IMG/VR virus record: IMGVR_UViG_2526164632_000013
Origin: a virus
Taxonomy: Duplodnaviria > Heunggongvirae > Uroviricota > Caudoviricetes
Length of the DNA stretch: 21,476 nucleotides
Reading direction: 5' to 3' (one strand)
In this document: piece after piece, positions 8,516-19,364 of the stretch
Layout of the letters: every line of letters begins with the position of its first letter
How positions within the stretch are numbered: position 1 is the stretch's first letter
Program-made: the position numbers and the translations under genes
Notes under the pieces: generated by a model
Told to the model about the DNA's origin: nothing
The model's database searches: none
The model's input: only the letters and a program-made list of their open reading frames with translations

Positions 8516-8963
8516 GAATCCTCCCGGCCGGGATAATATTGTGAGTAAAATGAGGAGCGGGCTGAAGTCCGGAAGTTACAGGACAATGGCAGAAGAGAGA
8601 CAACAGCCCGCAATACGAAAAAGGCCGCGCTATTGCGCAGAGTGATTACTGTCGGATATTATTCGCCAGCTGAAATATTACTTCACGTTTTGTTGTTTAT
8701 TCCTTGCCGCCCGCGTCTCCCAGCGCGGGCTTTTTTTGTCCATAAGAAAGCCCCTCCGGAGAGGGGCTGGAGAGTGGCGCTATGTGCCATTGCATGGTGC
8801 CGGGTGCCTCCCGGTGAATTCAGTACCAGCACCTGAATCCGCGATTATCCCATATACCTACTCGCTGATTGCCCCTCCGCACAGGGGGATTCACCATGCC
8901 AGTTTCTTTTAACAAACTCCCCGCAAAACAGACAACTGTCAACCGTCTGAATTGTGAGACATT

Positions 8964-9003: not shown

Positions 9004-9080
9004 TGGCGCGTTGTACTGGATTCGAACCAGTGACCGATTGCTTAGAAGGCAATTGCTCTGTCCGGCTGAGCTAACAACGC
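9004..9080 (-). tRNA. argO: tRNA-Arg (anticodon UCU)
   Basis: Manual fold: acceptor GCGTTGT/ACAACGC, anticodon stem ATTGC/GCAAT, loop CTTCTAA (anticodon TCT), T-arm GGTTCGAATCC, discriminator G, CCA encoded. Symbol assigned by position, following the ileZ-argN-argO order of Stx-phage late regions. Confidence 0.85.
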
Positions 9081-9093
9081 ATGATGCAGATAA

Positions 9094-9170
9094 TGGACCG
9101 CCATCGGGGACTTGAACCCCGCGCAGCCAGCTTCGAAGGCTGGCGCTCTTTCCTGATGAGCTAATAGCGG
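9094..9170 (-). tRNA. argN: tRNA-Arg (anticodon UCG by manual fold)
   Basis: Acceptor CCGCTAT/ATGGCGG (one G-U pair), anticodon stem CCAGC/GCTGG with loop CTTCGAA (anticodon TCG), T-arm GGGGTTCAAGTCCCC, CCA encoded. Symbol by position only. Confidence 0.75.
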
Positions 9171-9177
9171 TATGTGA

Positions 9178-9253
9178 TGGTGGCCCTTGCTGGATTTGAA
9201 CCAGCGACCTGGCGATTATGAGTCGCTCGCTCTCACCACTGAGCTAAAGGGCC
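9178..9253 (-). tRNA. ileZ: tRNA-Ile2 (anticodon CAU, AUA-reading ileX/ileZ-like)
   Basis: GGCCCTTTAGCTCAGTGGTGAGAGCGAGCGACTCATAATCGCCAGGTCGCTGGTTCAAATCCAGCAAGGGCCACCA is near-identical to E. coli ileX as recalled; anticodon loop CTCATAA. Confidence 0.85.
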
Positions 9254-13610: not shown

Positions 13611-13646
13611 TTCAAATGCGTTGAAAATAAAAACAAAAACCCGCCG
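13611..13646 (-). terminator. Rho-independent terminator of the hok transcript
   Basis: Minus-strand AACCCGC-ttcg-GCGGGTT followed by TTTTGTTTTTATTTT. Confidence 0.6.
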
Positions 13647-13723
13647 AAGCGGGTTAAGTGCGGGTGCGTTGAGGATGCCTGACACATCAGCGGTGGCGAG
13701 GGATTTCTCCCCCGCCTGGTCTC

Positions 13724-13879
13724 TTACTCCTCAGGTTCGTAAGCTGTGAAGACAGCGACCTCCGTCTGGCCGGTTCGGATTCGTACCTCGCAGAGGTCTT
13801 TCCTCGTTACCAGTGCCGTCACTATGACGGTTAAACAGATGACGATCAGGGCGATTAACATCGCCTTTTGCTGCTTCAT
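13724..13879 (-). CDS. hok: Hok/Gef-family type I toxin (HokD/RelF-like)
   Basis: 51 aa MKQQKAMLIALIVICLTVIVTALVTRKDLCEVRIRTGQTEVAVFTAYEPEE, the Hok family signature; AAGGAG Shine-Dalgarno. An in-frame upstream ATG (13936) with its own Shine-Dalgarno gives a 70-codon mok-like frame. Confidence 0.85.
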   Translation of the reverse strand: MKQQKAMLIALIVICLTVIVTALVTRKDLCEVRIRTGQTEVAVFTAYEPEE

Positions 13880-14090
13880 AGCCTGCTTCTCCTTGCCTTT
13901 CGGCGCGTAAGAGGCTAACCTACGTTTGTGAAGCATAGATTGGGCCTCAGATTAATGTTAAGCGTCTTGCAGGACGCGTAATGTTAACTGGGGCTTTTCT
14001 CTGTCTGCCTTACGGTGGCATGCCCGAGGCAGACAGCCTCAAGCACCCGCAGCAATTCTACTTAACTCCCGTCACCTCGCCAATATAAAA

Positions 14091-14180
14091 TCAATCAGAA
14101 AGGCGATCCATAAGAACAATAGCAAGACAATAAATTGCCACTACAGCCGCAATAGCCAGCGCGCATTTGAGAACCAGCAC
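14091..14180 (-). CDS. 29-codon hydrophobic ORF with strong RBS (hypothetical small membrane peptide)
   Basis: AGGAGG then 5 nt then GTG; (M)LVLKCALAIAAVVAIYCLAIVLMDRLSD; 70 nt downstream of the SIR2-like gene on the same strand. Not in the ORF track (under 60 aa). Confidence 0.35.
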   Translation of the reverse strand: MLVLKCALAIAAVVAIYCLAIVLMDRLSD

Positions 14181-14250
14181 GATAACCTCCTGTATTGGAC
14201 GTACACCAGCTCTGATAAATATGAGGCTGCCTCTTTAACTTCGCATTGCG

Positions 14251-15282
14251 CTACCAATCAATAAAATCAGTGATGTTATCCAACCTAATTACAGTAACTT
14301 CCCGTCTCAACTGGTTTTTCCAATATATCTCACGAGCGTTTTGTTCACCAGCACCGCTCCACTCAATTACTCTTAAAGGCTTAGAGGTTAGGTAAGGTCG
14401 AATAAGCAGGTTAAGGTGAATATCGAGACCAGAGTAACCAAACAATATTATTTCTTCTGATTCAAATAATGCAAACTGCAAATAATCCCAGTACGTAGAA
14501 AGAACATTAGATGCTGCTATAACTGACGGTTTTCTTTTTATATGAGTTAACACTATATGCTCACTAGGTTCATCTATGTCAAGAGTAAGTTGTGAGCGTG
14601 AAAGTTTTAAAACATTTTCATGCTGATTAATAAATAGTGGTGAACCATGCAAGTGCAAATAATAACCAAACCTACGATTGTATTTCCGTTCGAGCGCTGC
14701 AGAGGAAAATCCGTGGCTTAGCATCCCATCAACTAAAACCCCATCATACCCGTTGAATATATCATTATCTATGAATGAATTGTATAATAATTTGTCATAG
14801 TTTAATGTCGCGATATGTGAGTGTGTGTTCTTTACAAACTCCACAAGCGCATTTTCGAATCTTTGTGGCAAACCTTTATCGTAATTATGCAACCTGGTTG
14901 CAACTTTGTGAATATAAGTGGCGGTAATTTTGGGGAAGTTTAGTCCATCTTCAGTAAGCCAATGCACGTTCCCCTCTCCAATTTGAGCAAGAGCTTTACA
15001 ATATGTGACAGCCTGGTGAAGGGTATCCAACTCATGTTCTCCTTCTGGTGGACCTTGCCGCTGAAGACAACGCTCGATAAGTTGCTTGTGGATATCTTTT
15101 AAAAAATTGGGGCGATGCCAAATTTCTTCCAACGCTCTGTCTAAGGAGAAGTGAGCAGGATCTAAAGCCATACCGAGACCGTTGCCGAATATTATTAATT
15201 TTCTTGCCATATAGGGGGACTCATATTGGAATAACGCTGGATAGCGTCGCGCGATACGCTTAAGTTTAGGATTAATAGACAT
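14251..15282 (-). CDS. Standalone SIR2-like (SIR2_2-type) protein, candidate NADase defence effector
   Basis: 343 aa with the ordered motif set of defence-type SIR2 domains as recalled from ThsA: IIFGNGLGMA (Gly-rich NAD loop), IATLNYDKLL (TNYD-type, putative catalytic Asn161), YYLHLHGS (putative catalytic His212), ILFGYSGLD. No other domain. The gene and its 370-bp upstream region are visibly AT-rich compared with flanking phage genes (not computed). Confidence 0.8.
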   Translation of the reverse strand: MSINPKLKRIARRYPALFQYESPYMARKLIIFGNGLGMALDPAHFSLDRALEEIWHRPNFLKDIHKQLIERCLQRQGPPEGEHELDTLHQAVTYCKALAQIGEGNVHWLTEDGLNFPKITATYIHKVATRLHNYDKGLPQRFENALVEFVKNTHSHIATLNYDKLLYNSFIDNDIFNGYDGVLVDGMLSHGFSSAALERKYNRRFGYYLHLHGSPLFINQHENVLKLSRSQLTLDIDEPSEHIVLTHIKRKPSVIAASNVLSTYWDYLQFALFESEEIILFGYSGLDIHLNLLIRPYLTSKPLRVIEWSGAGEQNAREIYWKNQLRREVTVIRLDNITDFIDW

Positions 15283-19306: not shown

Positions 19307-19364
19307 TTTCTGGTGACGTTTGGCGGTATCAGTTTTACTCCGTGACTGCTCTGCCGCCGTTTTT
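19307..19364 (+). ncRNA. dicF: DicF small regulatory RNA (ftsZ-targeting)
   Basis: TTTCTGGTGACGTTTGGCGGTATCAGTTTTACTCCGTGACTGCTCTGCCGCC followed by GTTTTT matches the 53-nt DicF sequence as recalled; lies in a 570-bp non-coding gap between the ydfC-like and dicB-like genes, as in Qin. Confidence 0.8.

Follow-up and report, generated by a model that had tools for sequence, protein, structure and literature searches.

Sequence elements of an apparently complete hok/mok/sok locus of the hokD/hokW lineage in a Qin-type lambdoid prophage of Escherichia coli

The toxin gene hokD (relF) of the Qin prophage of E. coli K-12 is the third gene of relB-relE-hokD and is co-transcribed with the two genes in front of it. 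A hok gene of the same kind is found on the minus strand of the DNA analyzed here (the window, 21,476 nucleotides of the virus record IMGVR_UViG_2526164632_000013), where its upstream genes are a SIR2-family gene and a 29-codon open reading frame (ORF) instead of relB and relE. This raises the question if the gene is a complete RNA-controlled unit, a silent remnant of one, or a gene that is read from the operon upstream. The original prediction took it for a self-contained hok/mok unit next to SIR2 and without relBE. Both parts are borne out, as a SIR2-family gene occupies the upstream position that relB-relE takes directly in front of hokD in the K-12-type locus, and as promoter-like site, leader, mok frame, fbi element and terminator all belong to the window locus itself. 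We are highly confident that the minus strand from about 14083 to 13628 represents a complete hok/mok/sok type I toxin-antitoxin locus of the hokD/hokW lineage, located in the early-right region of a Qin-type lambdoid E. coli prophage. This is directly supported by the sequence elements, by their conservation and covariation, and by homology to experimentally studied loci. The locus is an ordinary and already known one: hok/sok is an RNA-controlled toxin-antitoxin module and the founding type I system, the prophage relative hokW-sokW has already been characterized and the exact window allele is annotated in thousands of genomes, so that as a discovery it matters little.

The elements of the locus and their coordinates are collected in Table 1. 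The interval 13611-14050 that was originally assigned to the locus holds its features, apart from the hok promoter-like site, which lies outside. Two further elements of the original prediction are present at shifted positions: the terminator, placed at 13611-13646, is off by about 10-25 nt, and the 9-bp hairpin in the leader, placed at about 14010-14045, by about 9 nt.

Table 1. Elements of the hok/mok/sok locus in the window, in the order of the predicted toxin mRNA, followed by the antisense strand
Element	Position	Strand	Description
hok/mok mRNA promoter-like site	14083-14055	-	-35 TTGGCG 14083-14078, 17-nt spacer, -10 TAGAAT 14060-14055
Predicted full-length hok mRNA, ~420 nt	14048..13628	-	from the tac 5' end to the T-run of the terminator
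tac element	14048-14037	-	GGGUGCUUGAGG; 5' end of the mRNA; pairs with fbi in the MFE fold and the RNAalifold consensus
Transient (metastable-type) 5' hairpin	14040-14036 with 14030-14026	-	GAGGC-ugucu-GCCUC; competes with the tac-fbi helix and the 9-bp hairpin
9-bp hairpin	arms 14036-14028 and 14009-14001	-	CUGUCUGCC...GGCAGACAG; second helix of the hok leader
Sok-target stem-loop of the hok mRNA	13994-13942	-	its complement is the Sok terminator hairpin
mok	13948-13724	-	GAGG 13948-13945, ATG 13936, 70 codons in frame with hok, stop 13726-13724
ucb-like box	13914-13907	-	CCUCUUAC; predicted pairing with GUAAGAG at the hok stop codon (13727-13721)
hok	13892-13724	-	Shine-Dalgarno GGAG 13892-13889, ATG 13879, 51 codons, stop 13726-13724 shared with mok
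fbi element	13674-13662	-	CCUCAACGCACCC; ~50 nt 3' of the hok stop; pairs with tac
Intrinsic terminator of the hok mRNA	13655-13628	-	7-bp G+C-rich hairpin AACCCGCTTCGGCGGGTT 13655-13638, followed by TTTTGTTTTT (terminator scan)
Sok promoter, assigned by homology	13893-13921	+	-35 TTGCCT 13893-13898, 17-nt spacer, -10 TAACCT 13916-13921
Predicted Sok antisense RNA, ~71-75 nt	~13928 to 13998-14002	+	both ends are predictions

The reading frames are the most readily recognized part of the locus. In agreement with the original prediction, which called the Hok peptide unambiguous, the product of the ORF 13879..13724 (51 amino acids plus stop) matches the Pfam family PF01848 (Hok/Gef) along profile positions 1-42 of 42 with E = 3e-23, as well as PHROG 251, 'MokW-like host killing', with 8e-33. 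The RefSeq accession WP_000813254.1 covers both the window hok product and K-12-type HokD. The predicted in-frame upstream ATG at 13936 likewise has its own Shine-Dalgarno sequence, a GAGG 8 nt 5' of it, and the resulting 70-codon mok frame corresponds to the Hok peptide with 19 extra N-terminal codons.

For comparison, 53 related loci were fetched, one genome per species, and 36 copies from Escherichia, Shigella, Kluyvera, Pseudocitrobacter, Citrobacter, Pantoea and Photorhabdus were aligned. The mok ATG and its GAGG are kept in nearly all of these 36 relatives, with an aligned ATG in 34. The frame is open and in frame with hok at an offset of 57 nt, as in the window, in 25 relatives, including hokW and most hokC-type copies (e.g. 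L016, L019-L022, L025 and L027). In the other 11 it is out of frame (offset 55, 56 or 58 nt), and nine of these 11 still read past the hok ATG. In plasmid R1 the mok start (116-118) and the hok start (174-176) are likewise separated by 58 nt and out of frame, in contrast to the window, and what matters is that translation of mok reaches the hok start, not the Mok product (PMC9841398). The in-frame mok was therefore rejected as a distinctive trait of the window locus and is regarded as a common variant.

To describe the 5' part of the toxin mRNA, promoter, covariance-model and folding analyses were combined. The promoter-like site of the hok mRNA has 9 of 12 consensus matches in the scan, and the predicted start is found 6 nt past its -10 hexamer, at the first G of GGGUGC (14048). 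Relatives with unrelated upstream DNA also harbor a -10-like hexamer (TATAAT, TAGAAT, TATATT or TATTAT) about 6 nt in front of the conserved GGG. From this start the Rfam family RF01794 ('sok antitoxin'; model length 157, gathering score 59 bits) matches the 5' 175 nt of the mRNA (14048-13874) along model positions 1-157 of 157, with 116.2 bits and E = 3e-26. An Rfam search for Sok and hok mRNA, put forward with the original prediction as a check, is thus positive, although it is the hok-sense leader that is matched and not the antisense strand: the hit is on the minus strand and ends at the hok AUG. RF01794 also hits the hok-sense strand in the same register in an R1-type IncFII plasmid (87 bits) and in the hokW Stx phage (113.5 bits), and in the window, the R1-type and the hokW loci the match begins exactly at tac. 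As all three hits fall on the hok-sense strand, RF01794 models the hok leader and confirms the locus rather than transcription of Sok. For the same reason the Rfam hit was rejected as evidence for the antisense RNA. A practical use of the window is hence a warning that RF01794, despite its name, reports the hok-sense leader and not the antisense gene. The complete 420-nt mRNA folds with a minimum free energy of -173.7 kcal/mol (z = -6.5 relative to 100 shuffles) and is closed by 5'-3' pairing of the first 12 nt with 13674-13662. Together, the E value of the RF01794 match and the z-score of the fold place the features of this locus far beyond chance.

Next, the conservation of the individual helices was analyzed. 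A consensus structure was calculated with RNAalifold on the 36-sequence alignment, with the pairing not given beforehand, and in addition the cells with a standard pair were counted and compared with controls in which the pairing partner was slid, and cells changed on both sides were compared with shuffles. The tac-fbi duplex has an energy of -21.5 kcal/mol, which was matched by none of 200 shuffles. The 3' segment that pairs best with the 5' end is located 44-55 nt past the hok stop in nearly all 36 relatives, and the duplexes calculated for the single loci range from -17 to -26 kcal/mol, apart from two degenerate copies (L016 and L048) in which the conserved fbi partner is missing. RNAalifold predicts the 5'-3' closure as well, with pair 4-408 being U-A in 22 sequences and C-G in 11. 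A standard pair was found in 89% of the tac-fbi cells, compared with 33-55% when the partner was slid, and 18 cells were changed on both sides, a number reached by none of 500 shuffles. The value of 89% is an underestimate, since in the Photorhabdus group, which has no bulge, half of the helix is displaced by one alignment column; this register shift depresses the counts at positions 7-12, at which the duplexes of the single loci do show pairing. Conserved fold-back elements, by which the original prediction proposed to judge the locus, are therefore present, the tac-fbi pairing being maintained, with compensatory changes, among relatives of 4-5 genera.

The short hairpin GAGGC/GCCUC within the leader is conserved as well, with a standard pair in 180 of 180 cells as compared with 21-56% in the slid controls, and with two pairs changed on both sides. 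Its counterpart in the R1 model (PMC9841398) would be the 5' structure that forms transiently while the mRNA is being transcribed. The 9-bp hairpin is a helix both of the RF01794 alignment and of the RNAalifold consensus (columns 13-20 with 42-49) and shows G-U and compensatory variants. Such variants were also observed in the Sok-target stem, including 12 double changes from A-U to G-C at pair 61-101 of the RNAalifold alignment. Compared with the Rfam consensus, this stem carries an extra inner hairpin, GCGUC-CUGCAA-GACGC (13977-13962), which is an insertion of 16-18 nt relative to RF01794. The same insert is present in the hokW, Shigella and Kluyvera copies, with compensated changes in two relatives (L024 and L026). 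Finally, the CCUCUUAC box and GUAAGAG form a helix in the RNAalifold structure (columns 141-147 with 328-336) in which all pairs are invariant, so that covariation neither supports nor opposes this predicted pairing. In hok mRNAs, boxes of the ucb/dcb type sequester or release the mok Shine-Dalgarno sequence.

A Sok-like RNA on the plus strand had originally been expected at roughly 13880-13980. The promoter hexamers assigned here do lie in this interval, whereas the predicted transcript extends from about 13928 to 13998-14002. In a consensus promoter scan of the window, the Sok promoter stayed below the threshold, its -10 hexamer TAACCT matching the consensus at just three of six positions. 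This hexamer is too weak for the scan, and the assignment of the promoter rests on homology to the mutagenesis of sokW. A promoter-less sokW construct made with primer YO-421 loses protection against HokW (Takada et al., 2021; PMC8621323). When this primer was mapped onto the window, it changed the homologous TAACCT to GAGCCG, the same hexamer as was mutated in hokW-sokW of Sakai prophage 5 (Sp5). Both hexamers and their spacing are kept in relatives. The sokW and hokW probes also map to the expected places in the window; the sokW northern probe YO-592 is found at 13957-13928 with four mismatches. The predicted Sok folds with -30.7 kcal/mol (z = -4.7) and has the shape expected of such an RNA: nine unpaired nucleotides at the 5' end, which are complementary to mok AUG-CUU-CAC, precede a long hairpin and a U-rich CUUUUCUCU tail. 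Sok is presumably transcribed from the plus strand of the window copy. Its predicted hairpin exceeds that of the Rfam consensus by about 18 nt. An unusually long Sok was considered as a novelty and rejected: as the insert recurs with compensated changes in the hokW, Shigella and Kluyvera copies, the longer hairpin is a trait of this clade.

The closest characterized system is hokW-sokW of Sp5 and of 933W-type Stx phages (PMC8621323), which shares both architecture and clade with the window locus. In the hokW copy of Stx2-converting phage I, which three of the Takada primers match exactly, the alignment with the window runs along the whole mRNA, and tac, the extended Sok-target hairpin, the Sok -35 and -10 hexamers, fbi and the in-frame mok at 57 nt are the same. 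RF01794 scores are similar (113.5 bits for hokW, 116.2 bits for the window), nucleotide identity is about 93% over the part aligned by megablast (76% of the 551-base query), and both loci reside in lambdoid prophages. They differ in the C-terminus of Hok, which ends in FTAYEPEE in the window, as in K-12 HokD, and in VDYESEK in hokW, and in the 3' flank past fbi, where the hokW copy is without the terminator hairpin of the window in the aligned stretch. Moreover, hokW adjoins an EaA-like gene in the Stx phage, whereas the window locus is located downstream of replication genes and SIR2. For hokW-sokW a toxin-antitoxin pair was demonstrated that is partly RNase III- and Hfq-dependent (Takada et al., 2021; PMC8621323).

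The comparison with the K-12 relBE-hokD locus, suggested along with the original prediction, shows where the two forms part. K-12 hokD and the window encode a Hok of the same accession, have the same downstream neighbors (rem, a 92-aa ORF and DUF968/ydfU) and are 98.5% identical in nucleotide sequence from just upstream of the hok Shine-Dalgarno sequence through the 3' end. The similarity starts at about 13893 and everything upstream of this point is absent from K-12, where relBE is found in place of the hok promoter, tac, the 5' hairpins, the Sok target, the mok start and the Sok -10 hexamer, all of which the window has. In line with this, a search of the K-12-type relBE-hokD locus with RF01794 gave no match. 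HokD itself was toxic as a control in a survey of Hok proteins (preprint 10.1101/2025.08.07.668861). The complete form is the common state of the gene in E. coli and lambdoid phages and K-12 is the truncated exception. Since most E. coli have the complete form and other genera share it, we infer that the K-12 arrangement is the derived one. Pedersen and Gerdes are said to have concluded in 1999 that the relBE-hokD arrangement of K-12 is derived. The window can thus serve in practice as a display of K-12 hokD before relBE replaced its control region, with the elements placed to the base.

Plasmid R1 hok/sok (parB), the prototype of the family, was also proposed for comparison and is built from the same elements, with Hok/Gef toxin, overlapping mok, tac/fbi logic and, for the window as a prediction, a cis-antisense Sok across the mok start. 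The Hok proteins are 42% identical, the Sok-target/Sok terminator stem of the window is about 18 nt longer than that of R1, and R1 is a plasmid, while the window is a prophage. A blastn search of plasmids with the window locus did not reach R1 hok/sok, as similarity is limited to short leader segments, and R1-type hok/sok was located via the Hok protein. The element order of the window was furthermore found in mokC/hokC (gef) and other chromosomal Escherichia hok loci, and hokC-type copies have the tac-fbi pairing at the same distance from the hok stop. Their leader is shorter and without the extra inner hairpin, the region of the Sok -10 hexamer reads CACTCT or CAGTCT instead of TAACCT, and their Hok is about 80% identical to that of the window and encoded at core-chromosome sites rather than in prophages. 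The tac/fbi arrangement has been described for hok mRNAs (PMC9841398).

A stretch of 551 bases around the locus is 100% identical to the chromosome of E. coli FDAARGOS_1059, in which the gene is hokD (WP_000813254.1) and lies in a Qin-type lambdoid prophage between the replication module with a SIR2-family gene on one side and rem, DUF968, rusA and a Q-like gene on the other. DNA similar to the locus was detected in 4726 of 5426 complete E. coli genomes, and 3020 of the 4726 have a query coverage of at least 80%, with the leader included. The exact 70-aa product occurs on 177 public contigs under the name 'type I toxin-antitoxin system Hok family toxin'. In E. coli and lambdoid phages the gene is annotated as hokD, MokW or Hok family toxin, and phage records use the names MokW, HokD, gef or 'host killer protein'.

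Based on the R1 and hokW paradigms and on the elements found, the canonical hok/sok mechanism, which is described in PMC9841398 and PMC8621323, is the best supported one for the window copy, for which we infer transcription from both promoters, 3' processing, toxicity and a biological role. A weak constitutive promoter would yield a stable mRNA of about 420 nt, in which the 5' tac segment is kept in the short transient hairpin during transcription. Once the mRNA is finished, tac and the 3' fbi element would pair, and the closed molecule would be neither translated nor bound by Sok. Slow trimming of the 3' end would then take off the terminator and fbi (about 46 nt), upon which the leader would refold and expose the mok ribosome-binding site and the Sok target. 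Ribosomes translating mok would cross the hok start, leading to synthesis of Hok, a 51-aa peptide expected to depolarize the membrane. As long as the locus is present, the unstable Sok (about 72 nt) would be made from the TTGCCT/TAACCT promoter on the plus strand and pair with the mok start region, by which translation of mok, and hence of hok, would be blocked and the duplex marked for RNase III. If the element is lost, transcription shut off or the prophage induced, the supply of Sok would fall, and Hok would be made and the cell killed or lysed. In the prophage such a module may serve its retention, help with lysis, as was reported for hokW, or exclude other phages.

Intact sequence is, however, no guarantee of classical activity, since the chromosomal loci hokA, hokB and hokC reportedly neither mediate post-segregational killing nor become activated upon rifampicin treatment (introduction of 10.1101/2025.08.07.668861). 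The window locus might accordingly be a sequence-intact but functionally silent chromosomal hok relic, like the hok loci reported not to kill. The weak consensus matches of the hok promoter (9/12) and the Sok -10 hexamer (3/6) would fit with this, yet the regulatory elements are intact and constrained: tac-fbi, the transient hairpin and the Sok-target stem all show compensatory changes. Within the locus, neither an IS element nor a frameshift or stop was found in the sequence and the ORF list. In addition, the close relative hokW-sokW, which shares leader architecture and Sok promoter hexamer with the window locus, is a functional pair that affects phage release, so that silence of the window copy appears improbable.

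Even less probable is that hok is expressed mainly by read-through of the early-right operon, on a transcript of SIR2 and the small ORF and with antitermination, and that Hok arises mainly upon prophage induction. From the cro-like to the Q-like gene, across the replication genes, SIR2, hok, rem, DUF968 and rusA, all genes are co-oriented, and the terminator scan detected no strong terminator between SIR2 and hok but just a weak terminator-like hairpin inside the small ORF, so that read-through transcripts may contribute. HokW protein was increased after mitomycin C treatment in a RecA-dependent manner, and a contribution to lysis and phage release was reported for hokW (PMC8621323). Read-through as the main source is nevertheless opposed by the -10-like hexamer in front of the GGG, which is also found in non-prophage chromosomal and Photorhabdus copies among the clades with unrelated upstream DNA, by tac being located exactly at the start of the RF01794 match in all relatives, and by the retention of the leader across at least 36 different upstream contexts. 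Read-through and an own promoter are not mutually exclusive, and neither silence nor read-through alters the identity of the locus as a hok/mok/sok system.

Besides the hok/mok/sok locus, its upstream flank was inspected. Between SIR2 and the promoter of hok, a 29-codon hydrophobic ORF with a strong Shine-Dalgarno sequence is located at 14180-14091. About 1,050 E. coli genomes carry this ORF, which is conserved but mostly unannotated: a few GenBank records call it a hypothetical protein, and in the 14 listed records with a spanning match (six E. coli records checked) no feature was assigned to it. The ORF was open in all 120 phage copies sampled, which had been gathered by a DNA pattern and are therefore biased towards copies with an intact Shine-Dalgarno sequence. 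These contained 12 distinct synonymous and 12 mostly conservative non-synonymous changes, and in 110 of the 120 a distance of 132 nt separates the start of the ORF from the 5' end of hok. Family searches with the 29-aa product in Pfam, PADLOC and PHROGs gave no match.

When 101 phage loci were compared, the 1.46 kb upstream of the block formed by the small ORF and hok sorted into at least 36 clusters without relation to each other, and strong PADLOC matches were obtained for five of ten tested occupants (PDC-S15, AbiH, PD-T7-1, PDC-S06 and dCTP deaminase). The SIR2 gene of the window thus occupies a variable cargo slot that often holds defence genes, and flagging it as such, as a more promising lead than the hok locus itself, is a further practical use of this analysis. 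It is conceivable, though rather doubtful, that the 29-codon ORF encodes a small membrane protein working with hok/sok, as a second toxin-like peptide or a modulator, and/or that the small ORF and hok form the conserved right border of a hypervariable hotspot for anti-phage cargo. If true, Qin-type lambdoid prophages would harbor such a hotspot, and hok/sok would act as an addiction module protecting the adjacent defence gene, SIR2 in the case of the window. Elsewhere in the window, Rfam reported STnc100, DicF and three tRNAs.

A short open reading frame of 29 codons lies between the hok promoter and the SIR2 gene on the minus strand, and its product, MLVLKCALAIAAVVAIYCLAIVLMDRLSD, consists of a hydrophobic helix followed by an acidic tail. 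No feature is annotated for it in RefSeq E. coli records, a few GenBank records list it as 'hypothetical protein', and no match was obtained in Pfam, PADLOC or PHROG. The block formed by this ORF and the hok locus was found in about 1,050 of 5,426 E. coli genomes. Among 120 IMG/VR copies, a sample skewed to copies with an intact Shine-Dalgarno sequence (SD), the reading frame was intact in every one, and the distinct changes amounted to 12 synonymous and 12 non-synonymous ones, the latter mostly conservative. Its start lay at a constant 132 nt upstream of the 5' end of the hok mRNA in 110 of these copies. Phage mEp460 has retained the ORF, although the gene upstream differs.

Sequence clustering was applied to the slot upstream of the block, which proved hypervariable, with at least 36 unrelated sequence clusters in 101 phage loci. 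Strong matches to anti-phage models were obtained for five of ten representative occupants, the models being PDC-S15, AbiH, PD-T7-1, PDC-S06 and dCTP deaminase. In the window the slot is occupied by a SIR2_2 protein of 343 aa (Pfam, 1e-5), which matched defence-type SIR2 models only weakly; in PADLOC these were Aga_SIR2 and PDC-S21, both at about 1e-5. In K-12, relBE occupies this position.

A putative plus-strand promoter-like site, picked up by its match to the consensus, overlaps the hok promoter in back-to-back orientation. This site would direct antisense transcription into the 29-codon ORF.

Features of the window and equivalent loci (L058-L177, phage loci sampled from IMG/VR; L178, R1-type IncFII plasmid copy; L057, Stx phage copy carrying hokW)
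Feature	Position	Strand	Basis or detail
29-codon ORF with SD	14091-14194	minus	GTG start 14180; SD AGGAGG 14194-14189
Variable slot upstream of the block	14251-15282; equivalent position in L058-L177	minus	sequence clustering
Promoter-like site (TTAACT, 18 nt, TAAAAT)	14062-14091	plus	consensus match
RF01794 matches	window 13874-14048; L178 232-403; L057 2521-2695	hok-sense	Rfam
STnc100	8738-8928	minus	Rfam, 139 bits
DicF	19308-19359	plus	Rfam, 72.5 bits
Three tRNA genes	9007-9253	minus	Rfam

In the window, the plasmid and the Stx phage copy alike, the Rfam model RF01794, named 'sok antitoxin (CssrC)', matched the strand that carries hok, opposite to Sok, which could mislead automated annotation. 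As each match lies on this strand and extends as far as the start codon of hok, it signals the hok mRNA leader.

In the plasmid copy (pMTY1886_IncFII, L178 344-403) the mok ATG lies 57 nt upstream of the hok ATG and is thus in frame, whereas R1 numbering implies an offset of 58 nt (PMC9841398). Single-base indels therefore switch the mok frame between close relatives.

The other RNA genes of the window, STnc100, DicF and the tRNAs (Ile, Arg and Arg according to the RefSeq annotation of an identical genome), are typical contents of Qin-type and Stx-type lambdoid prophages.
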